In this document: piece by piece, positions 33,512-58,425 of the stretch
Position numbering within the stretch: the first letter of the stretch is position 1
Layout: each line of letters opens with the position of its first letter
NCBI RefSeq assembly: GCF_044324875.1
Contig: NZ_CP172187.1
Strand: one strand, 5' to 3'
DNA: 64,000 nucleotides
From: Escherichia coli
GTDB taxonomy: Bacteria; Pseudomonadota; Gammaproteobacteria; Enterobacterales; Enterobacteriaceae
Position numbers and translations under genes: made by a program
The notes under the pieces: generated by a model
Told to the model about the DNA's origin: nothing
Database searches by the model: none
What the model saw: the letters and a program-made list of their open reading frames with translations, nothing else

Positions 33512-33733
33512 GTGAGTGATGAAGCCGATGAAGCATATTCAGTGACAGAACAACTGACCATGACAGGAATAAACCTGATACGCCAGAAAATAAATGCTCA
33601 TGGTATTCCTGTTTATCTCTGTGAAGCATGCGGAAATCCTATTCCGGAAGCCCGGCGGAAAATATTTCCCGGTGTGACGTTGTGCGTTGAATGTCAGGCG
33701 TATCAGGAAAGGCAGAGGAAACACTATGCATAA
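33512..33733 (+). CDS. traR: TraR (DksA/TraR zinc-finger)
   Basis: 73 aa; CEACGNPIPEARRKIFPGVTLCVEC zinc finger. Confidence 0.85.
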   Translation: MSDEADEAYSVTEQLTMTGINLIRQKINAHGIPVYLCEACGNPIPEARRKIFPGVTLCVECQAYQERQRKHYA

Positions 33734-34199
33734 ATCAGAAGCTGAAAAAATAGATTCTATTCTGGATGAACATCAACAGATATATCGCAGACATAACCGA
33801 ATAGATAACATCCTGGCGTTTTGTGCGTGTATTGCATGGGTTCCCTGTATTATTGCTGCGTTCGGCGTTGATGGTATATATCTGAAAATACTGTTTGCGG
33901 TCCTTGCCTGCTGTGGTGCGGTATGCTTTTTTATTTTCTTCTTCACCCTCCTGCCGGAATCACTCATGGTCCTCAGCCGTCAGAGCCTGCTTCAGCTTAT
34001 GCGTCTGACTGAAGACGTACCGGATGCGAGACAGGAACTGCTTAACCGTCTGCTGTCCGGTAAAAAACTGACTGGTCGGGATGAACAGGATATCCGGCGT
34101 CTCTGGCAGGAGAAAGTGGATGCAATGCAGGAGTCTGCCACCCGTCAGCGTGAACAGGATACTATTCGGAAGTTTACTGAAGGGAATAAATCCGAATGA
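33726..34199 (+). CDS. hypothetical membrane protein (non-core, traR-traC interval)
   Basis: 157 aa; AGAGGA RBS; two hydrophobic segments. Confidence 0.55.
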   Translation: MHKSEAEKIDSILDEHQQIYRRHNRIDNILAFCACIAWVPCIIAAFGVDGIYLKILFAVLACCGAVCFFIFFFTLLPESLMVLSRQSLLQLMRLTEDVPDARQELLNRLLSGKKLTGRDEQDIRRLWQEKVDAMQESATRQREQDTIRKFTEGNKSE

Positions 34200-34247
34200 G
34201 AATCTGCAGTGTTTTATGACCTCATAAGTTAACTGAAGGGATATTCA

Positions 34248-34493
34248 GTGATTAATATACAAGCGGAGATAATAAAGAATGCATACCTTTATTTTTCTTG
34301 TGCTGATAAAAATATTAACGGTGGCGGAAGCTGGAATATTACACCCATGCCAAATACGGACGTATGCGTGCAGGTTCTTCGGACAATCGAGTCACACGGA
34401 GGCAGGGGATTTGGAAATACAGGGGAATGTATTGAAGTTAAAACAAATAAACCTTTGAACAACGTGATGGATACACTGAATGGGGGGCAATGA
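34248..34493 (+). CDS. hypothetical protein (81 aa, GTG start)
   Basis: ORF only; weak RBS. Confidence 0.35.
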   Translation: MINIQAEIIKNAYLYFSCADKNINGGGSWNITPMPNTDVCVQVLRTIESHGGRGFGNTGECIEVKTNKPLNNVMDTLNGGQ

Positions 34494-34520
34494 GTGCTTA
34501 CTGCTTCAAAGGAAAATGAA

Positions 34521-34883
34521 ATGAAGTCGATATATTTAGAATCTGTTCTGGCTTTTATATTTGTTGGCGTTATGGCTATGTTGATATGTGGTCTTTTTTA
34601 CAATGACTACCTTGAGCAACAACCTGCAACACCAGAACAACTGAGAGAGATTACACAGGATATCCCCTGTGCAGCAGAAGCATTTAAGGAAGCTATTAAG
34701 TCTGACACATCTGATTATCAGCCTGAACCTTTAAGTCTTGGTAAGGCAAAAGAGCTTGCATCAGCGTGTAGAGAAAGAAACGAAATGGCAGAGGTGAAAC
34801 GGGTAAGAGAAAATGAGCGCAATAAGATTCGCGAAAAACAAATTCAGGCATTAAATGATGCTCATTCAGTAAAGGAACGTTAA
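34521..34883 (+). CDS. hypothetical membrane-anchored protein (120 aa)
   Basis: ATG after AAGGAAAA RBS; N-terminal TM segment. Confidence 0.5.
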   Translation: MKSIYLESVLAFIFVGVMAMLICGLFYNDYLEQQPATPEQLREITQDIPCAAEAFKEAIKSDTSDYQPEPLSLGKAKELASACRERNEMAEVKRVRENERNKIREKQIQALNDAHSVKER

Positions 34884-35008: not shown

Positions 35009-37639
35009 ATGAGTAATAACCCACTTGAGGCCGTCACTCAGGCGGTTAACTCCCTCGTCACAGCACTGAAACTGCCTGACGAATCAGCAAAGGCCAATGA
35101 AGTGCTGGGCGAAATGAGCTTCCCGCAGTTCAGCCGTCTGCTGCCGTACCGTGATTACAACCAGGAATCCGGTCTGTTCATGAATGACACCACGATGGGC
35201 TTTATGCTGGAAGCCATTCCCATCAATGGGGCGAATAAGTCCATTGTGGAGGCACTCGATCACATGCTGCGCACCAAACTGCCGCGCGATATTCCGTTGT
35301 GTATCCATCTGATGTCCAGTCAGCTGGTTGGTGACAGGATTGAATACGGGCTGCGTGAGTTCTCCTGGTCAGGTGAACAGGCTGAACGGTTTAACGCCAT
35401 TACCCGGGCCTATTATATGAAAGCGGCAGCGACACAGTTTCCGCTGCCGGAGGGGATGAATCTGGCCCTGACCCTGCGCCATTACCGGGTGTTTATCTCG
35501 TACTGTTCTCCTTCGAAGAAAAAAAGCCGGGCCGACATTCTGGAAATGGAAAACCTGGTGAAAATCATCCGGGCGTCGTTACAGGGGGCCAGTATCACCA
35601 CACAGACGGTGGATGCACAGGCCTTTATCGATATTGTCGGGGAGATGATTAACCATAACCCGGACTCCCTGTACCCGAAAAGACGTCAGCTGGACCCGTA
35701 TTCTGATCTGAATTATCAGTGTGTGGAGGACAGTTTTGATCTGAAAGTCCGGGCTGATTACCTGACGCTGGGCCTGCGTGAGAACGGCAGGAACAGCACG
35801 GCCCGCATCCTGAATTTCCATCTGGCCCGTAACCCGGAAATCGCCTTCCTGTGGAACATGGCCGACAACTACAGCAACCTGCTGAACCCGGAACTGTCCA
35901 TCTCCTGTCCGTTCATCCTGACGCTGACTCTGGTGGTGGAAGACCAGGTGAAAACCCACAGCGAAGCCAACCTGAAGTACATGGACCTGGAGAAAAAGTC
36001 GAAGACCTCCTATGCCAAATGGTTTCCGTCCGTGGAGAAAGAGGCGAAGGAGTGGGGGGAACTGCGTCAGCGGCTGGGCTCCGGTCAGTCCTCCGTGGTG
36101 TCCTACTTCCTCAACATCACAGCATTCTGCAAGGACAATAATGAAACGGCGCTGAAAGTGGAGCAGGACATCCTGAACAGCTTTCGTAAAAACGGTTTTG
36201 AGCTGATTTCACCGCGCTTTAACCACATGCGCAATTTCCTGACCTGCCTGCCCTTTATGGCCGGGAAAGGGCTGTTTAAACAGCTGAAAGAGGCCGGAGT
36301 GGTTCAGCGCGCAGAGAGCTTTAATGTGGCCAACCTGATGCCGTTAGTGGCGGATAACCCCCTGACACCGGCAGGTCTGCTGGCACCCACCTACCGTAAC
36401 CAGCTGGCGTTTATCGATATTTTCTTCCGGGGGATGAATAACACCAATTACAACATGGCGGTCTGTGGCACCTCCGGGGCCGGTAAAACCGGGCTGATAC
36501 AGCCACTTATCCGCAGCGTGCTGGACTCCGGGGGCTTTGCCGTGGTGTTCGACATGGGGGATGGCTACAAGTCCCTGTGTGAGAACATGGGGGGCGTATA
36601 TCTGGACGGTGAAACCCTGCGCTTTAACCCGTTTGCGAACATCACCGATATTGACCAGTCAGCGGAGCGTGTCCGCGACCAGCTGTCGGTGATGGCCAGC
36701 CCCAACGGTAACCTGGATGAAGTGCATGAAGGTCTGCTGCTGCAGGCGGTCAGGGCATCATGGCTGGCCAAAGAGAACAGGGCTCGTATTGATGACGTGG
36801 TGGATTTCCTGAAAAACGCCAGTGACAGCGAGCAGTATGCCGGGTCACCGACTATCCGCAGCCGTCTGGACGAAATGATTGTGCTGCTTGACCAGTACAC
36901 TGCCAACGGCACTTACGGCCAGTATTTTAACTCTGATGAGCCGTCCCTGCGGGATGACGCAAAAATGGTGGTGCTGGAGCTGGGCGGACTGGAAGACCGT
37001 CCGTCACTGCTGGTTGCGGTGATGTTCTCCCTGATTATCTACATCGAGAACAGGATGTACCGCACGCCGCGTAACCTCAAGAAACTGAACGTTATTGATG
37101 AAGGCTGGCGTCTGCTGGACTTCAAAAATCACAAGGTCGGTGAATTTATTGAGAAAGGCTACCGTACGGCCCGCCGTCATACCGGTGCCTATATCACCAT
37201 CACACAGAACATCGTCGACTTTGACTCTGACAAGGCCTCCAGTGCTGCCCGCGCGGCATGGGGTAACTCCTCCTACAAAATTATCCTCAGACAGAGTGCG
37301 AAGGAGTTCGCGAAATACAACCAGCTGTATCCGGACCAGTTCCAGCCACTGCAGCGCGACATGATTGGTAAGTTTGGTGCGGCCAAAGACCAGTGGTTCA
37401 GTTCCTTCCTGCTGCAGGTGGAAAACCATTCCTCCTGGCACCGCCTGTTTGTGGACCCGTTAAGCCGCGCCATGTACAGCTCTGACGGCCCGGATTTTGA
37501 GTTTGTGCAGCAGAAACGTAAAGAGGGGCTGAGTATTCATGAGGCGGTGTGGCAGCTGGCGTGGAAGAAGTCAGGGCCGGAGATGGCTTCGCTGGAAGCC
37601 TGGCTGGAAGAACATGAGAAATACAGGAGTGTTGCATGA
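35009..37639 (+). CDS. traC: TraC (VirB4-like ATPase)
   Basis: 876 aa; Walker A GTSGAGKT. Confidence 0.9.
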   Translation: MSNNPLEAVTQAVNSLVTALKLPDESAKANEVLGEMSFPQFSRLLPYRDYNQESGLFMNDTTMGFMLEAIPINGANKSIVEALDHMLRTKLPRDIPLCIHLMSSQLVGDRIEYGLREFSWSGEQAERFNAITRAYYMKAAATQFPLPEGMNLALTLRHYRVFISYCSPSKKKSRADILEMENLVKIIRASLQGASITTQTVDAQAFIDIVGEMINHNPDSLYPKRRQLDPYSDLNYQCVEDSFDLKVRADYLTLGLRENGRNSTARILNFHLARNPEIAFLWNMADNYSNLLNPELSISCPFILTLTLVVEDQVKTHSEANLKYMDLEKKSKTSYAKWFPSVEKEAKEWGELRQRLGSGQSSVVSYFLNITAFCKDNNETALKVEQDILNSFRKNGFELISPRFNHMRNFLTCLPFMAGKGLFKQLKEAGVVQRAESFNVANLMPLVADNPLTPAGLLAPTYRNQLAFIDIFFRGMNNTNYNMAVCGTSGAGKTGLIQPLIRSVLDSGGFAVVFDMGDGYKSLCENMGGVYLDGETLRFNPFANITDIDQSAERVRDQLSVMASPNGNLDEVHEGLLLQAVRASWLAKENRARIDDVVDFLKNASDSEQYAGSPTIRSRLDEMIVLLDQYTANGTYGQYFNSDEPSLRDDAKMVVLELGGLEDRPSLLVAVMFSLIIYIENRMYRTPRNLKKLNVIDEGWRLLDFKNHKVGEFIEKGYRTARRHTGAYITITQNIVDFDSDKASSAARAAWGNSSYKIILRQSAKEFAKYNQLYPDQFQPLQRDMIGKFGAAKDQWFSSFLLQVENHSSWHRLFVDPLSRAMYSSDGPDFEFVQQKRKEGLSIHEAVWQLAWKKSGPEMASLEAWLEEHEKYRSVA

Positions 37640-38022
37640 CCATAACGCAAAAAACGACGGATGTTACAGCCCCCCGACGCAGCCACTGGTGGTGGACGGT
37701 GCCGGGATACCTGGCAATGGTGTTACTGAACGCAGCCATCAGTTACGGCATTGTCAGACTGAACGCACCGGTGACTGCCGCCTTCAACATGAAACAGACC
37801 GTGGATGCGTTTTTTGACAGCGCCAGTCAGAAACAACTGTCAGAAGCACAGTCAAAAGCCCTTTCAGCGCGTTTTAACACGGCACTGGAAGCCAGCCTGC
37901 AGGCGTGGCAGCAGAAACACCACGCGGTCATTCTGGTGTCGCCTGCTGTGGTACAGGGGGCACCGGATATCACCCGGGAAATCCAGCAGGATATTGCCCG
38001 GCGAATGAGGGCGGAGCCATGA
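37636..38022 (+). CDS. trbI: TrbI
   Basis: 128 aa; synteny. Confidence 0.8.
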   Translation: MTITQKTTDVTAPRRSHWWWTVPGYLAMVLLNAAISYGIVRLNAPVTAAFNMKQTVDAFFDSASQKQLSEAQSKALSARFNTALEASLQAWQQKHHAVILVSPAVVQGAPDITREIQQDIARRMRAEP

Positions 38023-38651
38023 GATGCCGGGGGCTGATTGCCCTGCTGATATGGGGGCAGAGTGTGGCCGCCGCCGATCTTGGTACCTGGGGCGATCTGT
38101 GGCCGGTAAATGAGCCGGACATGCTGACGGTGATCATGCAGCGCCTGACGGCACTGGAGCAGTCCGGTGAGATGGGCCGGAAAATGGATGCCTTTAAGGA
38201 GCGGGTGATCCGCAACAGTCTGCGGCCCCCTGCCGTGCCCGGTATCGGACGCACGGAGAAATACGGCAGCCGGTTGTTTGACCCGTCCGTCAGACTGGCT
38301 GCGGATATCCGGGATAACGAAGGGCGGGTGTTTGCCCGTCAGGGTGAAGTGATGAATCCATTGCAGTATGTTCCTTTTAACCAGACGCTGTATTTCATCA
38401 ATGGCGATGATCCGGCGCAGGTGGCCTGGATGAAACGCCAGACGCCGCCCACACTGGAGAGCAAAATTATCCTCGTGCAGGGCAGTATCCCGGAGACGCA
38501 GAAGTCTCTGGACAACCGTGTTTACTTTGACCAGAACGGTGTGCTCTGCCAGCGCCTCGGCATTGATCAGGTCCCGGCACGGGTGAGCGCCGTTCCCGGC
38601 GATCGCTTCCTGAAGGTGGAATTTATTCCGGCAGAGGAGGGCAGAAAATGA
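38019..38651 (+). CDS. traW: TraW
   Basis: Start at MRCRGLIALL...; ATGA-coupled. Confidence 0.85.
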   Translation: MRCRGLIALLIWGQSVAAADLGTWGDLWPVNEPDMLTVIMQRLTALEQSGEMGRKMDAFKERVIRNSLRPPAVPGIGRTEKYGSRLFDPSVRLAADIRDNEGRVFARQGEVMNPLQYVPFNQTLYFINGDDPAQVAWMKRQTPPTLESKIILVQGSIPETQKSLDNRVYFDQNGVLCQRLGIDQVPARVSAVPGDRFLKVEFIPAEEGRK

Positions 38652-39640
38652 AGCGAAGCCTGTGGCTGCTGATGTTATTCCTTCTCGCCGGTCATGTCCC
38701 TGCAGCGTCTGCGGATTCTGCCTGTGAGGGGCGTTTTGTAAACCCGATCACGGATATCTGCTGGAGCTGTATTTTCCCGCTCTCGCTGGGCAGTATCAAA
38801 GTCAGTCAGGGTAAGGTCCCCGACACGGCGAACCCGTCGATGCCCATTCAGATTTGTCCGGCACCGCCGCCGCTGTTCAGGCGTATCGGGCTGGCCATTG
38901 GTTACTGGGAGCCGATGGCGCTGACGGACGTCACCCGATCACCGGGATGCATGGTTAACCTGGGCTTCAGCCTGCCGGCTTTTGGTAAAACGGCACAGGG
39001 AACGGCGAAAAAGGATGAGAAGCAGGTGAACGGGGCGTTCTATCACGTTCACTGGTACAAATACCCGCTGACGTACTGGCTTAACATCATCACATCGCTG
39101 GGCTGTCTGGAAGGTGGTGACCTGGATATCGCTTATCTTTCTGAAATCGACCCCACCTGGACGGACAGCAGCCTGACCACCATTCTCAATCCGGAAGCTG
39201 TCATCTTTGCCAATCCGATAGCACAGGGGGCCTGTGCAGCAGATGCCATTGCCAGCGCCTTTAATATGCCTCTCGATGTTCTGTTCTGGTGTGCCGGTTC
39301 GCAGGGCAGTATGTACCCGTTCAATGGCTGGGTGAGTAATGAGTCCAGTCCGTTGCAGTCCTCCCTGCTGGTCAGTGAACGCATGGCGTTCAAGCTGCAC
39401 CGTCAGGGCATGATTATGGAAACCATCGGGAAAAATAACGCCGTCTGTAATGAATATCCGTCCCCAATCCTGCCCAAAGAACGCTGGCGTTACCAGATGG
39501 TGAATATGTACCCGGACAGCGGACAGTGCCACCCGTTCGGGCGCAGTGTGACCCGCTGGGAGACGGGAAAAAATCCGCCCAACACAAAGAAAAACTTCGG
39601 CTACCTGATGTGGCGTAAACGTAACTGTGTGTTCCTGTAA
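38648..39640 (+). CDS. traU: TraU
   Basis: 330 aa; synteny. Confidence 0.85.
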   Translation: MKRSLWLLMLFLLAGHVPAASADSACEGRFVNPITDICWSCIFPLSLGSIKVSQGKVPDTANPSMPIQICPAPPPLFRRIGLAIGYWEPMALTDVTRSPGCMVNLGFSLPAFGKTAQGTAKKDEKQVNGAFYHVHWYKYPLTYWLNIITSLGCLEGGDLDIAYLSEIDPTWTDSSLTTILNPEAVIFANPIAQGACAADAIASAFNMPLDVLFWCAGSQGSMYPFNGWVSNESSPLQSSLLVSERMAFKLHRQGMIMETIGKNNAVCNEYPSPILPKERWRYQMVNMYPDSGQCHPFGRSVTRWETGKNPPNTKKNFGYLMWRKRNCVFL

Positions 39641-39668
39641 GTCATGTTAATCAATAAGAGGATCGATT

Positions 39669-39980
39669 ATGAAGGTGGGGGTAATAAGAAATAAGCACGC
39701 AGAGGACTTCAGAAAAATATGTCTTCTGTTTATCCGGTTAACGAGCAATGTATTAAAACTGTTTCCTTTTGCTATGGTGATGTGCTCTGTGGTGTGGTTT
39801 TATTTTTGCCCTGAACATATTCTCTCAGACATTGTTAACGACTGGCACGATGCAGATACACTGGAAAAAATACGGATTGTCAGACTGTATCTGAAGACGT
39901 CTTTTATTCTGACAGTGGTGGGCGTTGTTATTTCATATCTTTCTTCAGATAAGTTTATGCCCGTTAAGCGCAGGAAATGA
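39669..39980 (+). CDS. hypothetical small membrane protein (non-core, AT-rich)
   Basis: 103 aa; AGAGGA RBS; two hydrophobic segments. Confidence 0.5.
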   Translation: MKVGVIRNKHAEDFRKICLLFIRLTSNVLKLFPFAMVMCSVVWFYFCPEHILSDIVNDWHDADTLEKIRIVRLYLKTSFILTVVGVVISYLSSDKFMPVKRRK

Positions 39981-40042
39981 GTCTGGCGGTTCTCATAAAT
40001 ATAACCGTGTGTGCATGTGTACAATATAAGTAAAGGTGCGTT

Positions 40043-40564
40043 ATGGGATTTTTCTCGTTTTTACGAAAGATAAGTAATAAAGAAAAAGGGGTGGTTATCT
40101 ATGAGAAGCAGTGGTTCTCACTGCTGGAAAAGGTGAGTGCTTTTGATGAGGTCAGACAATGGGCTGAAAGTAATGGTGGAGCATATTATCCTCTGCTGGA
40201 GTGTCGTCGGCTTACAGACAGTGAAGATGTCAGGAAATCAGAGGATATACTGAACCGACTGGAGTTTATTGACAGAAGATTTCGGGAATTCATCAGCATT
40301 ATGTCTGAACATATTAATAATGATAAAACTAAATCCATGTGGGAGAGGGAATTGTCTGAATATCCACCGGAAAAAATATACCAGGTCCGGAGAGAGGGAG
40401 AACATCTGTCATTAAAAAATTACGGTGATGATATTACTCTGAACAGAGATACCGCCGTGGCTACGGTGCAGATTACTGTCAGCAGAAAATGCATTACTCA
40501 GGAAGAAATGGATGAATTATATGCATTGTCTGAGAGACTGAAAGAAAAGTGCGCCGGTAATTAA
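40043..40564 (+). CDS. hypothetical protein (173 aa, non-core, AT-rich)
   Basis: ATG after AAAGGTG; no family recognised. Confidence 0.5.
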   Translation: MGFFSFLRKISNKEKGVVIYEKQWFSLLEKVSAFDEVRQWAESNGGAYYPLLECRRLTDSEDVRKSEDILNRLEFIDRRFREFISIMSEHINNDKTKSMWERELSEYPPEKIYQVRREGEHLSLKNYGDDITLNRDTAVATVQITVSRKCITQEEMDELYALSERLKEKCAGN

Positions 40565-40590
40565 ATTATATCACTGTGCCGGGAGATGAT

Positions 40591-41229
40591 ATGAGCCGGA
40601 AAATATTTGTACTTTTTGCCCTGACAGCAGGACTGTTTATTTCTGCCCATGCTTCGGAAAATGTGAATACACCCGAAAACCGCCAGTTCCTGAAGCAGCA
40701 GGAAACACTGAGTCAGCAGTTACGTGAAAAACCGGACACACAGCTGCAGGCATGGGCAGAACAGCAGGTCAGGGCGAATCCCCTTCAGCATTCCGATAAC
40801 CAGTTTCTCGATGAACTGGTCCGTAAACAGCAGGCTTCGCAGGGTGATAAACCACAGCAGGGTGCCCTGTATTTTGTGTCGTTTTCCATACCCGAAGAGG
40901 GGCTGAAACGGATGCTGGGTGAAACCCGGCACTACGGTATTCCGGCCACGCTGCGGGGCATGGTGAACAACGACCTGAAGACCACCGCTGAAGCCGTGCT
41001 GTCCCTGGTGAAAGACGGCGCGACTGATGGTGTTCAGATCGACCCGACGCTGTTTTCACAGTACGGCATTCGCAGCGTTCCGGCCCTGGTGGTGTTCTGC
41101 AGCCAGGGGCACGACATCATCCGGGGAAACCTGCGCGTCAGGCAGGCGCTGGAGAAAGTGGCCGCCACAGGAGACTGCCGGCAGGTGGCTCAGGGACTGC
41201 TGGACGGCACCGGGGATAAATCGCAATAA
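40591..41229 (+). CDS. trbC: TrbC
   Basis: 212 aa from MSRKIFVLFALTAG; GGAGA RBS. Confidence 0.8.
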   Translation: MSRKIFVLFALTAGLFISAHASENVNTPENRQFLKQQETLSQQLREKPDTQLQAWAEQQVRANPLQHSDNQFLDELVRKQQASQGDKPQQGALYFVSFSIPEEGLKRMLGETRHYGIPATLRGMVNNDLKTTAEAVLSLVKDGATDGVQIDPTLFSQYGIRSVPALVVFCSQGHDIIRGNLRVRQALEKVAATGDCRQVAQGLLDGTGDKSQ

Positions 41230-41276
41230 GTTTACCTGCAGGCTATTACCGGATTGACCCGGACATCCGTGCACTG

Positions 41277-41597
41277 GTGTCCGCGATGAACGTGCATGGA
41301 TTTCGTACATATGCGTCCTGTCAGGGGCATGGCTTCCCTGTTACGAAACTGCCGCCTTATATCGCCTTTTCCTGTCCGGTAAAAATGGCTGCCCTTCTGG
41401 AGCAGCGACTGCGGCAGGATGCTGAATCAGCAATACCACGTCTGACATGGGGATGGTCGGTGAAGGGGACTTTTAACAGTGATTTTCAGCTTTGCTTCCG
41501 GCTTCAGCCTGAAAGCCCTCATCACTGGTATCACCGGTACTGTCGCCGCTCACTGCGTGCAGACTTCAGGACGCTGGTCCGCTTACTGAATCCGTAA
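41277..41597 (+). CDS. hypothetical protein (start uncertain)
   Basis: ORF only; no clear RBS. Confidence 0.35.
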   Translation: MSAMNVHGFRTYASCQGHGFPVTKLPPYIAFSCPVKMAALLEQRLRQDAESAIPRLTWGWSVKGTFNSDFQLCFRLQPESPHHWYHRYCRRSLRADFRTLVRLLNP

Positions 41598-41621
41598 ATC
41601 TGTTCCCGTAAGGAGGCATTG

Positions 41622-42044
41622 ATGGCGCTGACAAAGAAGCAGCGGGAAAAACTGCGTATGAAATTCGGCGGTCGTTGTGCGTACTGCGGCTGTGAACTGC
41701 CGGAAAAAGGCTGGCATGCCGACCATGTTCAGGCGGTGCTCCGCAAGTCAGAGCAGTGCATGAAGGCTGCAGAAAAGCGCATTTTCAGGCTGAAATCCAC
41801 CGGTGATGTTTTCAGACCGGAGGCCGACTGTCCGGAAAACCTCGTCCCGGCCTGTGCGCCGTGCAACCTGCTGAAAACAACATATTCGCTGGAGATGTTC
41901 AGAACGCAGGTGTCCCTGCAGGTTGAACGGGGGCGAAGAAGCAGCGTGAATTTCAGGACCGCAGAACGGTTCGGGCTGATTCAGGTGGTGAACAAACCAG
42001 TCGTGTTCTGGTTTGAGCAATATCAGAGGGAGAGTGAGGTATGA
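41622..42044 (+). CDS. HNH endonuclease-family protein, translationally coupled to traN
   Basis: CAYCGC...HADHV...CAPCN motifs; AGGAGG RBS; ATGA overlap with traN. Confidence 0.75.
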   Translation: MALTKKQREKLRMKFGGRCAYCGCELPEKGWHADHVQAVLRKSEQCMKAAEKRIFRLKSTGDVFRPEADCPENLVPACAPCNLLKTTYSLEMFRTQVSLQVERGRRSSVNFRTAERFGLIQVVNKPVVFWFEQYQRESEV

Positions 42045-43891
42045 AACGTCTTCTGCCATTGCTGCTGGGGCTGGCAGTCAGTGTGGCACAGGCTGACAGC
42101 AACAGTGATTACCGGGCGGGTTCTGATTTTGCCCGTCAGATTCAGGGGCAGGGTACAGGCAGTATTCAGGGCTTTAAGCCACAGGAGAGTATCCCCGGCT
42201 ATAACGCGAATCCGGACGAGACAAAATATTACGGTGGAGTGACTGCCGGCGGGGATGGCGGCCTGAAAAATGACGGCACCACGGAATGGGCGACCGGTGA
42301 AACCGGAAAAACTATCACAGAGTCATTCATGAACAAGCCGAAAGACATTCTTTCACCGGATGCGCCGTTTATCCAGACCGGCAGGGATGTGGTGAACCGG
42401 GCTGACAGCATTGTGGGAAACACCGGGCAGCAGTGCAGTGCGCAGGAGATAAACCGCAGTGAATTCACAAACTATACCTGTGAGCGGGACACGATGGTGG
42501 AGGAGTACTGCACACGGACTGCCAGTATCACCGGGGACTGGAAATACACGGATGAATATCGTGAGGTGACGATACCGCACTCACAGTTCCAGTTCAGTAT
42601 GAACGGGCTGAAACTGGTGTTCAGTGTCACGGCTCCGGTAACCGGTACAGTGGAAAGTGCATCATTGTCTGTATACGCCGCTTTTTTCTTCCTGAATTCT
42701 CGTTATACCTTCATGAATTCGACGTTCAATGTTGGCCTGGTAAACGGGCAGTCGGGTACTTTCCCCTTGTCCGGGGCGACAGGTTTGCAGGTGACACAGG
42801 GGCAGGTTCTGACCGGTAGTGGCTGTACTGCAAACGGTAATTGCCTCCCGCACGGGAACGGTGACAGGAAAGTCTATGAATCGCTTGTCAGTGGTGCTTC
42901 CACCTTTACGCTGAAACTCAGGATGAAGGTCCGTGATAAAGAATGGGTTCCCCGGGTGGAGTGGGTGGAGAGTTGTCCGTTTAATAAAGCGGATGGCGTG
43001 CTGAAAGGCACTGAGTGTTCAGAGCCGGGGGGTACGAAAACGGGTGTGATGGAAGGTAAACCCTGGAGCATCACACAGGCATGCTGGGCATACCGGGATA
43101 AATATGTCACACAGTCCGCAGATAACGGCACCTGTCAGAAATATGTCGATAATCCGGCCTGTACGCTGGCCTCACGTCAGTGCGCGTTTTATTCCGATGA
43201 GGGAATCTGTCTGCATGAGTATGCCACGTACTCCTGCGAGTCCAGAACATCAGGAAAAGTGATGGTCTGTGGTGGTGATGTCTTCTGCCTTGACGGTGAA
43301 TGCGATAAGGCACAGAGCGGAAAAAGCAGTGATTTTGGTGAGGCTGTATCACAGCTGGCTGCGCTTGCCGCCGCAGGTAAGGATGTTGCCGCCCTGAATG
43401 GTGTGGATGTCAGGGCTTTCACGGGCGAGGCGAAATTCTGCCGTAAGGCCGCAGCCGGCTTCAGTAACTGCTGTAAGGATGGTGGCTGGGGTCAGGATGT
43501 GGGGCTGGCGAAGTGCAACAGTGAAGAAAAGGCACTGGGAAAGGCAAAGGACAACAAACTGACGGTGAGTGTGGGCGAGTTCTGTTCGAAAAAGGTACTC
43601 GGTGTCTGCCTGCAGAAAAAGCGCAGCTACTGCCAGTTTGATTCGAAACTGGCGCAGATAGTCCAGCAGCAGGGGCGTAACGGGCAGCTGCGTATCGGGT
43701 TTGGCAGCGCCAAAAGTCCTGACTGCCGTGGAATAACCGTGGATGAACTACAGCGTATTAAGTTCGACCAGCTGGACTTCACTAACTTCTACGAAGACCT
43801 GATGAATAACCAGAAAATCCCGGACAGTGGCGTTCTGACGCAGAAAGTGAAAGAGCAGATTGCTGACCAGCTGAAGCAGGCAGGACAATAA
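42041..43891 (+). CDS. traN: TraN (Cys-rich outer-membrane mating-pair stabilisation protein)
   Basis: 616 aa; signal peptide; many conserved Cys. Confidence 0.9.
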   Translation: MKRLLPLLLGLAVSVAQADSNSDYRAGSDFARQIQGQGTGSIQGFKPQESIPGYNANPDETKYYGGVTAGGDGGLKNDGTTEWATGETGKTITESFMNKPKDILSPDAPFIQTGRDVVNRADSIVGNTGQQCSAQEINRSEFTNYTCERDTMVEEYCTRTASITGDWKYTDEYREVTIPHSQFQFSMNGLKLVFSVTAPVTGTVESASLSVYAAFFFLNSRYTFMNSTFNVGLVNGQSGTFPLSGATGLQVTQGQVLTGSGCTANGNCLPHGNGDRKVYESLVSGASTFTLKLRMKVRDKEWVPRVEWVESCPFNKADGVLKGTECSEPGGTKTGVMEGKPWSITQACWAYRDKYVTQSADNGTCQKYVDNPACTLASRQCAFYSDEGICLHEYATYSCESRTSGKVMVCGGDVFCLDGECDKAQSGKSSDFGEAVSQLAALAAAGKDVAALNGVDVRAFTGEAKFCRKAAAGFSNCCKDGGWGQDVGLAKCNSEEKALGKAKDNKLTVSVGEFCSKKVLGVCLQKKRSYCQFDSKLAQIVQQQGRNGQLRIGFGSAKSPDCRGITVDELQRIKFDQLDFTNFYEDLMNNQKIPDSGVLTQKVKEQIADQLKQAGQ

Positions 43892-43914: not shown

Positions 43915-44163
43915 ATGATGAAGGTCATATTCACGTCGAACCGTTTTATTGATTTTCTTATCCGGCTTTTGATTACAGCGATTGTCATTTCCCCGGTAAT
44001 TATCTGGTCGTGGGATACGGTAAAAGAAACCACGGCAGACGGGATGCCTGCCGCTGCTTTCGTTATCCTTTACTCCGGTGTGCTCCTGTTTATTCTGTAT
44101 TTTTGTTTTTCTGCCCTGACCTGCAGAAAACCGATGAAAGAAAAAATGATGAAAGGAATGAAG
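43915..44163 (+). CDS. trbE: TrbE-like small membrane protein; no stop codon before the in-frame traF start
   Basis: Frame continues uninterrupted into traF (ORF 43915-44907). Confidence 0.55.
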
Positions 44164-44907
44164 ATGAATAAAGCATTACTGCCACTGTTACTCTGCTGCT
44201 TTATTTTTCCGGCGTCAGGGAAAGATGCAGGCTGGCAGTGGTATAACGAGAAAATAAATCCGAAGGAAAAAGAAAATAAACCTGTACCTGCAGCCCCCCG
44301 TCAGGAGCCGGATATTATGCAGAAACTGGCCGCGCTGCAGACGGCAACAAAGCGGGCGCTGTACGAAGCCATTCTGTATCCCGGCGTGGATAATTTTGTG
44401 AAATATTTCCGGCTGCAGAATTACTGGACTCAGCAGGCCGGGCTTTTCACCATGAGTGCTAAAAAAGCTATGCTGGCACATCCCGAACTGGACTATAACC
44501 TGCAGTACAGCCATTACAACGGCACGGTCCGGAACCAGCTGGCGGCAGACCAGGCGCAGCAGCGACAGGCCATTGCGAAACTGGCTGAACACTACGGCAT
44601 CATGTTCTTTTACCGGGGGCAGGACCCCATCGACGGGCAGCTGGCGCAGGTCATTAATGGCTTCAGGGATACCTATGGTCTGAGTGTTATTCCCGTTTCC
44701 GTGGATGGTGTGATTAATCCGCTGTTGCCGGATTCCCGGACTGACCAGGGGCAGGCGCAGCGCCTCGGCGTGAAATATTTCCCGGCCATGATGCTGGTTG
44801 ACCCGAAACAGGGCAGTGTTCGCCCGTTATCATACGGCTTTATTTCGCAGGACGACCTGGCAAAACAATTCCTGAACGTTTCTGAAGATTTTAAACCCAA
44901 TTTTTAA
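44164..44907 (+). CDS. traF: TraF (thioredoxin-fold pilus assembly protein) with own signal peptide
   Basis: 247 aa from MNKALLPLLLCCFIFPASG. Confidence 0.85.
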   Translation: MNKALLPLLLCCFIFPASGKDAGWQWYNEKINPKEKENKPVPAAPRQEPDIMQKLAALQTATKRALYEAILYPGVDNFVKYFRLQNYWTQQAGLFTMSAKKAMLAHPELDYNLQYSHYNGTVRNQLAADQAQQRQAIAKLAEHYGIMFFYRGQDPIDGQLAQVINGFRDTYGLSVIPVSVDGVINPLLPDSRTDQGQAQRLGVKYFPAMMLVDPKQGSVRPLSYGFISQDDLAKQFLNVSEDFKPNF

Positions 44908-51812: not shown

Positions 51813-51860
51813 ATCTTAATTTGTATATTATGACGTTTTATTCAATATGAAGGAACATTG

Positions 51861-52592
51861 ATGAAAATGAAAAAATTGATGATGGTTGCACTGGTCAGTT
51901 CCACTCTGGCCCTTTCAGGGTGTGGTGCGATGAGCACAGCAATCAAGAAGCGTAACCTTGAGGTGAAGACTCAGATGAGTGAGACCATCTGGCTTGAACC
52001 CGCCAGCGAACGCACGGTATTTCTGCAGATCAAAAACACGTCTGATAAAGACATGAGTGGGCTGCAGGGTAAAATTGCTGATGCTGTGAAAGCAAAAGGA
52101 TATCAGGTGGTGACTTCTCCGGATAAAGCCTACTACTGGATTCAGGCGAATGTGCTGAAGGCCGATAAGATGGATCTGCGGGAGTCTCAGGGATGGCTGA
52201 ACCGTGGTTATGAAGGCGCAGCTGTTGGTGCAGCGTTAGGTGCCGGTATTACCGGCTATAACTCAAATTCTGCCGGTGCCACACTCGGTGTAGGCCTTGC
52301 TGCTGGTCTGGTGGGTATGGCTGCAGATGCGATGGTGGAAGATGTGAACTATACCATGATCACGGATGTGCAGATTGCAGAGCGTACTAAGGCAACGGTG
52401 ACAACGGATAATGTTGCCGCCCTGCGTCAGGGCACATCAGGTGCGAAAATTCAGACCAGTACTGAAACAGGTAACCAGCATAAATACCAGACCCGTGTGG
52501 TCTCAAATGCGAACAAGGTTAACCTGAAATTTGAAGAGGCGAAGCCTGTTCTCGAAGACCAGCTGGCCAAATCAATCGCAAATATTCTCTGA
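51861..52592 (+). CDS. traT: TraT surface-exclusion lipoprotein
   Basis: 243 aa; lipobox LALSGC. Confidence 0.9.
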
Positions 52593-53579: not shown

Positions 53580-54335
53580 TTAACGCGTTTTTTCGCTGCT
53601 TTCCACTACCGGGGGATTTTTCCTCAGTGACTCTCCCTGAAGGACCACTCGGTGTGAGTTATGTACCAGTCTGTCCAGGATGGCATCTGCTGTTGTTGGG
53701 TTCTCCATCAGACCATGCCATTTATCTACCGGGAACTGGCTTACCACTATCGTGCTGCTTTGTCCGTAACGATCCTCTATGAGCTCCAGAAGGTCATTAC
53801 ACTGGGCGTTACTTAACTGTTCCAGCCCCAGATCGTCCAGGATTAGAACCTGTATTTTTTGCAACTGTTTCAGATATTTCAGCCAGCTGCCATCAACACG
53901 TCCCTGAGCCAGTTGTTCCAGTAATCGCCCGGTTCTACAGTACCGGACGCTGTGTTTCTGTCGACATGCCTGTTCGCCCAGCGCATTGGCTATCCAGCTC
54001 TTGCCACATCCTGTCGGACCGGTTATCAGCAGGTTTTTCCTGTGGGTTATGTAGTGGCCGTTCAGCAGTTCTCTCATCTGTTCAGCCCGCAGACCTCTTG
54101 AGGCCGGATAGCGCAGCCCTTCCGGTGTTGCCTGGTATTTCAGGCCGGCATTTTTTCTCAACCGTGCCACACGGCTGTTTTCCCTGCTCAGAAGCTCGTC
54201 ATCAACCAGCAGCGTCAGCCTTTCCTCGAACGACAGTTCGTCGTAGGTCTGAGGCGTTTCCCGCTGCCGTATCAGGCTCCCGGCCATCGCCGGGAGTTTC
54301 AGTTGGGTCAGTTTGTTTAACAGGTTATCACTCAT
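53580..54335 (-). CDS. istB: IstB helper ATPase
   Basis: 251 aa from MSDNLLNKLTQLKLPAMAG; Walker A GPTGCGKS. Confidence 0.9.
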   Translation of the reverse strand: MSDNLLNKLTQLKLPAMAGSLIRQRETPQTYDELSFEERLTLLVDDELLSRENSRVARLRKNAGLKYQATPEGLRYPASRGLRAEQMRELLNGHYITHRKNLLITGPTGCGKSWIANALGEQACRQKHSVRYCRTGRLLEQLAQGRVDGSWLKYLKQLQKIQVLILDDLGLEQLSNAQCNDLLELIEDRYGQSSTIVVSQFPVDKWHGLMENPTTADAILDRLVHNSHRVVLQGESLRKNPPVVESSEKTR

Positions 54336-54351
54336 ACTGTTGTTCCTTCTG

Positions 54352-55887
54352 TCAGTGGTAGTAGCCCGGACCACGCAGGTTTTCATGCTCTGAAGCATAT
54401 GCCGGATGTTGTTCGCCCTGGCGGGATAATGGAAGCTCCAGGTTCTCCCGATGGTGACGCAGCAGATTGTCGATAAAGCGTCTGTCAGGGGCGTTATAGT
54501 GCAGGGCAACGTAACAGGCCTTTTCCAGCCGTTCCGGGCCGTATTTTTTCTGAAGTGCCAGCAGCCCCAGAACTGCACGATAAGCCAGTTCCGGATGGGG
54601 TTTTGCCTTCAGCATGGATTCAACCACCCGGCCTGTGGACGGGCCCGTACGTTTTCCCTGCTCGATCAGGCGTTCCGGTGTCCATGTCCCGTGCTGCCGG
54701 TGGCGCTCTGGCATGTGAAGCGGATTGGTTGTGTGTTTATATTCATGTGTGCTGCGCGGATGTTGCGCCACACACTGCCCCTTGTGCCAGAGCTGTACCA
54801 CCGACTGCCCCGCCTTCAGTGACAGACGCTGACCGACCAGTTCGTGTGGAACGGAGTACCAGTGACGGGCATATTCAACGTGGTAGTCAGGGCCAACCTT
54901 CACAGCTTTGTATTCCGTGTATTCATAAGGTGCCAGAGGCAGCGGAGAGAGTGCTGGCGCATCCAGTATGCGGAAGCGTTCTGCACGGGTTTGATTGCCG
55001 TACCCCTTCATTGGCCGGTTATTCATGTCTGTCAGTAACTCCCTAAGGCGCGCATTCAGCGCCCTGAGCGTGTGGAAGGTTTCATTACGGATGCGGGCAA
55101 GAAGCCATCGTTCAACGATGAGGACGCCGTTTTCTGCTTTTGGTTTATCTTTAGGTTTGCGTGGTCGGGCCGGGATGATAACCGTGCCATAGTGCTCAGC
55201 CAGTGCCTGATAACTGTCGTTGATGACAGGCTCATATCGATCGGCCTTTTTCACTGCGCTTCTGAGGTTATCGGGGATGAGCAGCTTCGGTACGCCGCCC
55301 AGGAAGGTCAGGCAACGGCTGTGGGCATTTAACCATGACATCATGTCCTGACCTTCGCACGCTTCAACGTAGGTATAGTTGGACGCCCCCATTACGGCCA
55401 CGAAGATTGCCACGCGGCGTATCTCACCGGTGTCCGGATTAATAACAGGAACCGTAGGACCACAGAAGTCGATAAAAAGCTTTTCGCCGGCACGATGCTC
55501 CTGGCGCATGGAGAGACGTCGCGTTTTTTTCCACTCCCGGTAGCAACGGCAGAAGTGCGAGTATCCCATCGCTTTGTTACCCGCCTGTGCCTTGTATTCC
55601 ATCCACAACAGTTGCCGCGTCACACCTGGTTTTCTCATTTCCGTATCGAAGTACAACATGTCAGGCATTACAAGCTCTGATGCAAAGGTGTCTTTGGGCG
55701 GAAAAATGAGTTTCTCCAGCGTGTCATGGGATATATCAGCAGGTAATGGCCATGACAGAGAAGAGGCTTTGAAGCGGGCAAGAACCTCAAAAACGGTTGA
55801 GGCGCTGATGTGTAACGTCAGTCCGATACAACGGTTAGTCAGCTTCTTGTCGAACTTGAGCTGAAGGATCTTAAAACAGGTTTCCAT
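54352..55887 (-). CDS. istA: IstA transposase (DDE)
   Basis: 511 aa from METCFKILQLKF...; AGGAG RBS. Confidence 0.85.
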   Translation of the reverse strand: METCFKILQLKFDKKLTNRCIGLTLHISASTVFEVLARFKASSLSWPLPADISHDTLEKLIFPPKDTFASELVMPDMLYFDTEMRKPGVTRQLLWMEYKAQAGNKAMGYSHFCRCYREWKKTRRLSMRQEHRAGEKLFIDFCGPTVPVINPDTGEIRRVAIFVAVMGASNYTYVEACEGQDMMSWLNAHSRCLTFLGGVPKLLIPDNLRSAVKKADRYEPVINDSYQALAEHYGTVIIPARPRKPKDKPKAENGVLIVERWLLARIRNETFHTLRALNARLRELLTDMNNRPMKGYGNQTRAERFRILDAPALSPLPLAPYEYTEYKAVKVGPDYHVEYARHWYSVPHELVGQRLSLKAGQSVVQLWHKGQCVAQHPRSTHEYKHTTNPLHMPERHRQHGTWTPERLIEQGKRTGPSTGRVVESMLKAKPHPELAYRAVLGLLALQKKYGPERLEKACYVALHYNAPDRRFIDNLLRHHRENLELPLSRQGEQHPAYASEHENLRGPGYYH

Positions 55888-56226
55888 AGTGCTCCTGGAT
55901 TTTCTCTTTCTGGACATTGACGTCTCCACTGGTTTAAACACGGCAATGGAGACTGTGGTGAAAAGAGTTAATTCCCGGAGTGACTGGCAGGATGCCAATC
56001 AATGATCGGAAGCATGCCAAATCGTGATCGATTGTGATGCCAAACTGTGATCGGAGATGGATGCCAAATCATGATCGATTCGAATGCCAAACTGCGATCG
56101 ATTCAGATGCCATTTTGCAGCAGGCGGGTATCACCACCGGCATACAGGGTACACCTGGTCTGTTTCTGTGAATTAACCCCACATCATCCTTTTCTGCCCT
56201 GTTCCAGATTTTCCCGGAGTTTCATC

Positions 56227-58425
56227 ATGAGTTTTAACGCAAAGGATATGACCCAGGGCGGTCAGATTGCGTCCATGCGTATCCGCATGTTCAGCCAGAT
56301 CGCCAATATCATGCTTTACTGCCTGTTTATTTTTTTCTGGATACTCGTTGGTCTGGTTTTATGGGTAAAAATAAGCTGGCAGACGTTTGTGAACGGCTGT
56401 ATTTACTGGTGGTGTACCACGCTGGAAGGCATGCGGGATTTAATCAAGTCCCAGCCAGTATATGAGATTCAGTATTACGGCAAAACCTTCCGGATGAACG
56501 CTGCCCAGGTACTGCATGATAAATATATGATCTGGTGCGGTGAGCAGCTATGGTCCGCATTCGTTCTGGCGTCTGTCGTGGCCCTGGTTATTTGCCTGAT
56601 CACCTTCTTTGTTGTCTCCTGGATTCTGGGGCGTCAGGGTAAACAACAGAGCGAAAATGAAGTCACAGGTGGTCGTCAGCTGACAGACAATCCGAAAGAC
56701 GTTGCCCGGATGCTGAAAAAAGACGGCAAGGACTCCGATATCCGGATTGGCGACCTGCCGATTATCCGGGATTCCGAAATCCAGAACTTCTGTCTGCACG
56801 GCACGGTCGGGGCCGGTAAGTCGGAGGTTATCCGTCGTCTGGCCAACTACGCCCGTCAGCGCGGTGATATGGTGGTGATTTATGACCGTTCAGGGGAATT
56901 TGTTAAAAGTTACTATGATCCCTCCATCGATAAAATCCTGAATCCGCTGGATGCCCGCTGTGCCGCATGGGATTTGTGGAAGGAGTGCCTGACACAGCCG
57001 GATTTTGATAATACCGCAAATACTCTGATCCCTATGGGTACAAAAGAGGACCCGTTCTGGCAGGGTTCAGGACGTACCATTTTTGCGGAAGCGGCGTACC
57101 TGATGCGTAATGACCCCAACCGCAGCTACAGCAAACTGGTGGACACACTGCTTTCCATCAAAATTGAAAAACTGCGTACCTTCCTGCGTAATTCACCGGC
57201 AGCCAACCTGGTGGAAGAGAAAATTGAGAAAACGGCGATTTCCATCCGTGCTGTGCTGACCAACTACGTGAAAGCCATCCGTTACCTGCAGGGGATTGAG
57301 CATAACGGTGAGTCTTTTACCATCCGTGACTGGATGCGTGGTGTCCGGGAAGATCAGAAAAACGGCTGGCTGTTTATCTCGTCGAATGCCGACACCCATG
57401 CCTCCCTGAAGCCGGTGATCTCCATGTGGCTGTCCATTGCCATTCGTGGTCTGCTGGCAATGGGAGAAAACCGTAACCGTCGTGTGTGGTTTTTCTGTGA
57501 CGAGTTACCCACGTTACACAAACTGCCGGACCTGGTGGAGATCCTGCCGGAAGCCCGTAAGTTCGGAGGCTGTTATGTGTTTGGTATCCAGTCCTATGCC
57601 CAGCTGGAAGATATCTACGGTGAGAAAGCGGCGGCCACGCTGTTTGACGTCATGAACACCCGTGCTTTTTTCCGTTCCCCGAGCCATAAGATTGCAGAGT
57701 TCGCTGCCGGTGAGATTGGTGAGAAAGAGCACCTGAAAGCCAGCGAGCAGTATTCCTACGGTGCTGACCCGGTACGTGACGGGGTATCGACCGGTAAGGA
57801 TATGGAGCGTCAGACACTGGTCAGTTATTCCGACATTCAGTCTCTGCCGGATCTGACCTGCTATGTCACTCTGCCCGGACCGTATCCGGCAGTAAAACTC
57901 TCCCTGAAATATCAGGCACGACCGAAGGTCGCTCCGGAGTTTATTCCGCGTGACATCAACCCGGAAATGGAGAACCGTCTGAGTGCCGTACTTGCTGCAA
58001 GGGAAGCAGAAGGTCGCCAGATGGCCAGCCTCTTCGAACCGGAGGTTGCCTCCGGAGAAGGCGTGACTCAGGCTGAACAGCCACAACAGCCACAACAGCC
58101 ACAACAGCCACAACAGCCACAACAGCCACAACAGCCACAACAGCCAGTGTCTTCTGTCATGAATGATAAGAAGTCAGATGCAGGTGTGAGTGTTCCGGCA
58201 GGGGGGATCGAGCAGGAGCTGAAAATGAAACCGGAAGAAGAGATGGAACAGCAACTGCCACCCGGGATCAGTGAATCCGGTGAAGTGGTGGATATGGCCG
58301 CTTATGAGGCATGGCAACAGGAAAATCATCCGGACATCCAGCAGCAGATGCAGCGTCGTGAAGAGGTGAACATTAATGTGCACCGGGAGCGCGGGGAGGA
58401 TGTTGAGCCGGGAGATGATTTCTGA
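56227..58425 (+). CDS. traD: TraD coupling protein (T4CP)
   Basis: 732 aa from [13 protein letters not shown]...; Walker A GTVGAGKS; C-terminal QPQ repeats. Confidence 0.9.
58078..58146 (+). repeat. in-frame 9-bp tandem repeat (CAGCCACAA)x~7.7 encoding (QPQ)n in TraD C-terminus
   Basis: Read directly. Confidence 0.9.

Follow-up and report, generated by a model that had tools for sequence, protein, structure and literature searches.

The traU-trbC junction of F-type transfer operons is, by comparison of plasmid sequences, a recombination hot spot rather than the product of a single insertion event, and the two small genes that occupy it in the DNA analyzed here, ORF1 and ORF2, are ordinary, uncharacterized, nonessential accessory genes of the tra operon. 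Within the window (the whole 64,000-nt stretch of Escherichia coli DNA under analysis), an F-type transfer operon runs on the + strand, with traC (35009-37639), trbI (37636-38022), traW (ending at 38651), and traU (38648-39640, 330 aa) ahead of the slot and trbC (40591-41229, 212 aa) and traN (42041-43891) behind it; genes were assigned from the open reading frame list and from the annotation of CP129283, a plasmid 100% identical to the window. Between traU and trbC, the conserved left flank and the right flank of the slot, lie, all on the + strand, a 28-nt spacer (39641-39668), ORF1 (39669-39980, 103 aa), a 62-nt spacer (39981-40042), ORF2 (40043-40564, 173 aa), and a final spacer of 26 nt (40565-40590). 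A sequence-only reading had described a two-TM protein and a soluble protein with good ribosome-binding sites and a base composition different from that of their surroundings, and each of these features is borne out: the hydropathy of the two products agrees with that description, Shine-Dalgarno-like sequences stand 6 nt ahead of the ORF1 ATG (AAGAGGA, 39656-39662) and 4 nt ahead of the ORF2 ATG (AAAGGTG, 40032-40038), and the 950-bp segment 39641-40590 has a GC content of 39.8%, vs 55.3% for traU, 59.1% for traW, and 56.3% for trbC. Third codon positions differ likewise, with GC3 values of 0.44 and 0.40 in ORF1 and ORF2 vs 0.67 and 0.64 in the flanks. An Rfam search of 38500-42500 gave no structured-RNA match at E <=1.

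The same reading had taken the pair to interrupt an otherwise contiguous operon. Measured against plasmid F, which has only 8 nt between traU and trbC, this is so, but the survey of other plasmids does not support a discrete two-gene insertion. A megablast search with 39500-40700 matched the 3' end of traU in 4328 plasmids and most of the query in only 480 of them (11%), and at least four unrelated gene families occupy the slot in varied combinations. It is empty in F and F-type plasmids; R100 and a large R100-like group carry a lone ORF1-family gene; pSLT-type Salmonella plasmids carry a diverged ORF1-family gene that overlaps the start of trbC; and the window and its close relatives carry the ORF1-ORF2 pair. 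In loci L005 and L022, an ORF1-type gene of 111 aa overlaps an ORF2-type gene of 150 aa by 8 nt, while in approximately 278 plasmids a 153-aa P-loop protein (named "YfdA" in some records) is followed by the 150-aa ORF2 type. An unrelated ORF of 58/59 aa is the sole occupant in Klebsiella IncFII(K)-like plasmids and elsewhere is stacked ahead of the pair, and the remaining forms are stacked or decayed and include IS1, IS903B, and IS66 insertions. The 58/59-aa family lies directly after traU (L002, 3162-3341; L028, 2662-2838), and its E. coli and Klebsiella members are 65% identical; the Klebsiella IncFII(K)-like plasmids also have an extra 133-aa ORF between traW and traU (L028, 1254-1655). Carriers of the cassette seen in the window include KPC-bearing Klebsiella plasmids as well as E. 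coli plasmids from poultry and humans, and among complete E. coli genomes the segment occurs in 314 of 5426, with 334 of 336 copies plasmid-borne.

Several features of the flanks indicate how the slot is refilled. TraU is 99-100% identical across most plasmids that carry different cassettes, whereas TrbC shares only 82-86% identity with the R100 and F types, its differences lying mainly within the N-terminal third (first ~95 residues), and is 96.7% identical to the TrbC of L016, which has the same ORF2 type; the exchanged segment thus begins at the stop codon of traU and reaches into the 5' third of trbC. In L016-L019, where two cassettes are stacked, a 41-nt copy of the 3' end of traU (GCTACCTGATGTGGCGTAAACGAAACTGTGTCTTTCTGTAA; approximately 3902-4000 in L016) stands between them, a footprint of recombination at the end of traU, whose last ~40 nt act as the recombination anchor. 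Variants differ in mosaic fashion over the first ~75 nt of ORF1, and the 28-nt spacer ahead of it is partly common to R100, L005, and L016. As L016 retains the first part of the ORF1-ORF2 spacer after ORF1 before the traU 3' remnant interrupts it, the first ~35 nt of the 62-nt spacer appear to travel with the ORF1 cassette; at the other end, the end of ORF2 ("GGTAATTAAATT"; "GN-stop-ATT") and the first spacer bases are common to the 173-aa and 150-aa types. Together, the traU-end duplicate and the mosaic 5' end of ORF1 point to a slot refilled by homologous recombination between plasmids and not by transposition, and the absence of element-like repeats and of a recombinase agrees with this: a repeat scan of the segment found only short chance-level repeats, none of them at its borders, and the open reading frame list includes no recombinase, transposase, or integrase in the segment. 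A transposable or integrative element was therefore rejected, given the lack of flanking repeats and of a recombinase, and junctions that coincide with gene boundaries common to many plasmids. The F-type TrbC (L006, L029) begins with a different signal peptide (MKLSMKSLAALLMM...) from the M(N/S)(R/W)K(I/L)F(A/V)LFALT(A/T)G... found in all cassette-bearing types, meaning that the F junction differs by more than the absence of the ORFs.

Comparative data also show that ORF1 and ORF2 are genuine, moderately constrained genes. None of the seven aligned variants of the segment (90-99% DNA identity) has either frame interrupted, the ribosome-binding sites are conserved between variants, and a 3-nt indel in ORF2 is in frame. 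Pairwise Nei-Gojobori dN/dS, calculated over three coding windows (full-length ORF1, ORF1 from codon 26, and ORF2), was below 1 in 62 of 63 comparisons, the values above 1 being 1.02 and 1.90. For ORF1 it ranged from 0.11 to 0.36 within variants of the window type and from 0.43 to 1.02 against the more divergent L011/L012 type, and for ORF2 from 0.19 to 0.80, with a single low-divergence pair at 1.9. Distant homologs, at ~32-44% protein identity, keep both length and slot position: ORF1 is 44% identical to the 101-aa R100 protein WP_000224416.1 (blastp E 2.5e-32, alignment of 101 aa) and shares 40% identity with a 111-aa protein of CP078136, and ORF2 is 32-34% identical to the 150-aa protein found in the same slot of other plasmids; a tblastn search of 7.3 Gb of plasmid DNA gave E-values of 1e-17 to 1e-23 for ORF1 and ~1e-11 for ORF2. 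This retention of frame, size, and position in distant homologs argues that both are real genes. Their sequences are already present in hundreds of records as "hypothetical protein," and PGAP calls no ORF1 in several plasmid records.

ORF1 has two hydrophobic segments, at about residues 28-47 and 70-92, with charges of +5 on the N-terminal tail, +4 on the C-terminal tail, and -3 on the loop between them, and is thus predicted, from hydropathy and the positive-inside rule only, to be a small inner-membrane protein with both termini in the cytoplasm. The hydropathy peaks of the R100 homolog (residues 28-46 and 70-91) coincide with its own. Using the R100 protein as a tblastn query, we found the family in 2030 plasmids, and a profile search recovered 170 clusters, nearly all from Enterobacterales, none with a Pfam domain and all named only "hypothetical" or "conjugative transfer protein." Members share the motifs LKLFPF where TM1 begins, FYFxP(E/D) where it ends, and RLYLK before TM2, with P33, F44, and the loop tryptophan W59 invariant in the alignment; ORF1 itself shows similarity over its full length, approximately 100 aa with two hydrophobic segments and the loop tryptophan, and, like the IncF members, a site directly after traU on the tra strand. 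Conservation of the pair in reference F-like tra operons, which the sequence-only reading had named as counting against it, holds for ORF1, with its homolog in R100, but not for ORF2. The R100 gene and its pSLT-type counterpart WP_010999945.1 (33% identical to the R100 query, 34% to ORF1) match ORF1 in position, length, two-TM pattern, and motifs, but, unlike in the window, the R100 and pSLT-type genes stand alone, abut or overlap trbC, and have no ORF2 beside them. Because the R100 homolog is itself functionally uncharacterized, the match names a family and not a function.

The family also extends beyond IncF plasmids. A clade of 114-aa IncX proteins (L023-L025, 5001-5345; L021, 1429-1773) resembles ORF1 in family (~34% identity, profile E 1e-30 to 1e-36), in strand, and in its place at the end of an operon, being a conserved backbone gene that follows VirB10, VirB11, T4CP, and Cag12 at the end of the pilX/taxB operon and precedes an SNase nuclease gene. 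It differs in belonging to the MPF_T secretion type, in its 4-nt overlap with the nuclease gene (seen in two of three contigs), and in having no ORF2 homolog near it. Downstream of it are genes for topoisomerase III, Hha, and H-NS. The presence of the family in type IV secretion operons of two types argues against a strictly F-pilus-specific job. ORF1 had no match in NCBIfam, Pfam, PADLOC, or PHROGs, and an HMM search of the fetched loci and the window found no paralog of either protein elsewhere. Two candidate relationships were discarded: a match to VMA21 in a PDB profile search (E 0.22), taken as generic two-TM resemblance, and kinship with TrbE (hhalign probability 2.5%).

ORF2 is a hydrophilic, mildly acidic protein (pI 5.4) with no signal peptide and no TM or hydrophobic segment, and by sequence comparison it is a genuine orphan. 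No relative below 80% identity came from a word-indexed search, and when 1.84 billion representatives were searched exhaustively with a HMMER profile, the full-length hits formed only two clusters, one of the 173-aa type and one of the 150-aa type, with fragments besides; a 947-aa repeat protein (P0079) was rejected as a low-complexity artifact. By tblastn, ORF2 is present in 814 plasmids; the family occurs only in enterobacterial F-like plasmids, and a complete ORF2 is the gene immediately upstream of trbC in every sampled locus. It is often truncated or disrupted by IS elements, and many truncated forms occur; in the exceptional locus L027, for example, an IS66 insertion shortens ORF2 while ORF1 is intact. 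The ORF1-position P-loop protein that precedes the 150-aa type (WP_000277845.1; L008/L009, 2522-2983; L026, 3941-4477) carries the Walker-A-like sequence GEEDTGKST. Homologs of this "YfdA" protein, 43% identical and named "sigma 54-interacting transcriptional regulator" by PGAP, lie at the end of the IncI2 VirB-like operon, just upstream of pilN.

The family and structure searches proposed for the pair led to no named family. ORF2 had no match in a PDB profile search or in Pfam, NCBIfam, PADLOC, or PHROGs, the relatives of the two proteins gave no significant family match either, and a PADLOC "E1-E2" match of the 150-aa type (E 1.2e-4) was rejected as weak because Pfam and PDB sequence searches, including those against Cap2-like proteins, gave it no support. 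AlphaFold2 models of ORF2 had unusable pLDDT values of 51.1 (8-sequence alignment) and 50.6 (28-sequence alignment), the low-confidence prediction being mostly helical and uncertain at residues 110-150, and a Foldseek search of AFDB50 returned only ORF2 itself (A0A2Z4I1Z5, uncharacterized). Across the sequence-family and structure searches, no function for ORF1 or ORF2 emerged from homology or fold.

A natural fusion connects the two families. The representative of the 173-aa ORF2 cluster, P0011 (259 aa; 335 member sequences), consists of an ORF1-family paralog through TM2 (residues 1-92) joined directly to ORF2 residues ~3-173, and its relative P0022 was found in 73 contigs and indexed in 96 collection blocks from NCBI, JGI, ENA, and Logan assemblies. 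The ORF1-paralog portion shares 50-56% identity with the R100 and L005 types. This fusion and the overlap by 8 nt of the two gene types in L005 and L022 offer Rosetta-stone evidence that ORF2 functions beside an ORF1-type membrane anchor, and the two proteins probably cooperate. Since no export signal is present in ORF2 and the C-terminal tail of ORF1 is basic, the simplest reading is that ORF1 forms a hairpin with both termini inside and that ORF2 would lie against the inner membrane on its cytoplasmic side. The families are not obligate partners, as each occurs without the other. The description of the pair as a cargo module therefore holds in part: the genes are non-core and compositionally foreign, ORF1 is by prediction a membrane protein, and the fusion argues for joint work, but they do not travel as a discrete two-gene insertion.

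Expression of the pair is probably tied to that of the operon. A promoter scan of 39300-40900 found no promoter-like site on the + strand above shuffled expectation, its sole promoter-like site lying on the - strand and below shuffle expectation, and no terminator-like site was seen on the + strand before 40857, inside trbC. With both genes on the same strand as tra and no + strand promoter or terminator, ORF1 and ORF2 are likely read through from upstream, and as part of the long tra transcript they should be produced only while the transfer operon is active. Plasmid F is transfer-proficient yet lacks both genes, which indicates indirectly that neither is required for transfer.

With moderate confidence, we propose that ORF1 and ORF2 are co-transcribed, nonessential accessory factors that modulate the mating apparatus or the donor envelope at the inner membrane and are not needed for DNA transfer itself. 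ORF1 would be an inner-membrane hairpin with cytoplasmic termini and an acidic periplasmic loop, belonging to a family that travels with IncF and IncX type IV secretion operons; ORF2 would be cytoplasmic and act with it at the inner-membrane face; and the pair would be made only while the tra operon is on, in transfer-competent donors and fresh transconjugants. The frequent truncation and IS disruption of ORF2, together with its fairly high dN/dS, suggest that its contribution may be marginal.

Such genes have counterparts in kind in the Trb and Art proteins of F (TrbA, TrbD, TrbE, TrbF, TrbG, TrbJ, and ArtA), which are likewise short, AT-rich, often membrane-embedded, patchily distributed, and nonessential, and are set between GC-rich tra genes. 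In the window, the trbE and trbA/artA regions have a GC content of 37-42%, and trbA, trbG, and artA are poorly conserved among F-like plasmids (PMC5102898). ORF1 and ORF2 show no sequence relationship to these proteins and no NCBIfam or Pfam match to any Tra/Trb family, whereas the flanking genes do match curated Tra/Trb models. In the accessible literature, including F-like comparative genomics, we found no paper characterizing ORF1 or ORF2; the names ygeA, ygeB, and ygfA were considered for the slot genes and set aside, as they belong to F leading-region genes at a different locus.

A possible but distinctly less probable explanation is that the slot genes are moron-like cargo unrelated to the mating machine, expressed during transfer and serving plasmid competition or protection, for example by inhibiting the fertility of co-resident plasmids, by an exclusion-like function, or by protecting against pilus-specific phages or recipient defenses. 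By analogy, phage morons are also foreign small genes that sit in a fixed slot of a conserved operon and are swapped among relatives, and the AT-rich composition of the segment, the patchy and combinatorial occupancy of the hot spot, and the variable patches of ORF2 (residues 16-24 and 89-103) would all suit such a role, as would the finding of the ORF1 family and the YfdA-like P-loop protein at the tails of unrelated IncX and IncI2 type IV secretion operons, which speaks against an F-pilus-specific role. The analogy is loose, as no promoter or terminator of their own was detected for ORF1 and ORF2 and neither shows phage homology. Against cargo of this kind, the window proteins have no PADLOC, PHROG, or NCBIfam match that would place them in such a role, the one "E1-E2" hit was not reproduced by Pfam or PDB searches, and the segment has no DNA match in phage genomes. 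A broader and rather unlikely reading would make all slot occupants interchangeable members of a so far unrecognized class of conjugation-coupled, membrane-tethered factors, such as fertility inhibitors or establishment and anti-defense proteins, that are shared by IncF, IncX, and IncI2 secretion operons; if true, such modules, made only in transfer-competent cells, would tune transfer success by host or competitor.

It is improbable that the two genes are decaying passengers, functionless remnants kept through linkage to the essential genes on either side. Decay would fit the many truncated forms of ORF2, the IS insertions in the slot, the omission of ORF1 by PGAP in several records, and the upper end of the ORF2 dN/dS range (0.8, with the single pair at 1.9), but it accords poorly with frames that survive at such low protein identity with length, position, and motifs conserved, with an in-frame indel and conserved ribosome-binding sites, with dN/dS values mostly well below 1, and with the retention of at least 80% of ORF2 in 752 of 814 plasmids. 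Least probable of all is a toxin/antidote or membrane-effector/immunity module that stabilizes the plasmid or kills competitors: a small membrane protein beside a small soluble one, each with its own ribosome-binding site and the two families physically linked in several cassette types, would look the part, but ORF1-family genes stand alone in >1000 R100-type plasmids and in pSLT-type and IncX plasmids, ORF2-type genes occur with a P-loop protein in place of ORF1, ORF2 is truncated or IS-disrupted beside an intact ORF1 (which a toxic ORF1 would not tolerate), fused ORF1::ORF2 proteins are common, and no toxin-antitoxin, immunity, or effector family was matched. The suggestion of a membrane effector with a dedicated partner thus finds no support, given that the families occur apart and that no toxin-antitoxin, defense, or effector match was obtained.

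In Enterobacteriaceae, resistance and virulence genes travel mainly on F-like plasmids, and if slot genes change how efficiently a plasmid transfers, its host range, its sensitivity to phage, or its competition with other plasmids, they could help to explain differences in spread between plasmids with near-identical tra operons. The present analysis contributes a map of the hot spot, its connections to IncX and IncI2 plasmids, and the natural fusion; it does not overturn current understanding of conjugation, and the ORF1 family is still without a name.

Several other parts of the transfer region in the window stand out. Between traR and traC, at 33687-34883 (+), a region of 43% GC holds two AT-rich hypothetical ORFs of 170 and 129 aa, neither with an NCBIfam match, and looks like a further accessory slot of the tra operon. 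At 41226-42044 (+), between trbC and traN, is a second variable cassette with a 123-aa hypothetical ORF and a 141-aa HNH endonuclease (phrog_2118, E 2.4e-58; weak PtuB-like and retron-HNH matches); the cassette is absent from F and R100, and pSLT-type plasmids have only its HNH gene. At 43915-44907 (+), a single 330-aa ORF joins TrbE (residues 2-76; NF010271, E 1.9e-37) in frame with TraF (residues 83-330; NF010257, E 2.7e-144), whereas trbE and traF are separate overlapping genes in R100 and F, and PGAP annotates only traF in CP129283. Finally, an IS21-family element with istA (548 aa; NF033546, E 1e-84) and istB (332 aa; NF038214, E 2e-76) lies at 53580-55998 on the - strand, opposite to the tra operon, between traT (51858-52592) and traD (56047-58425).
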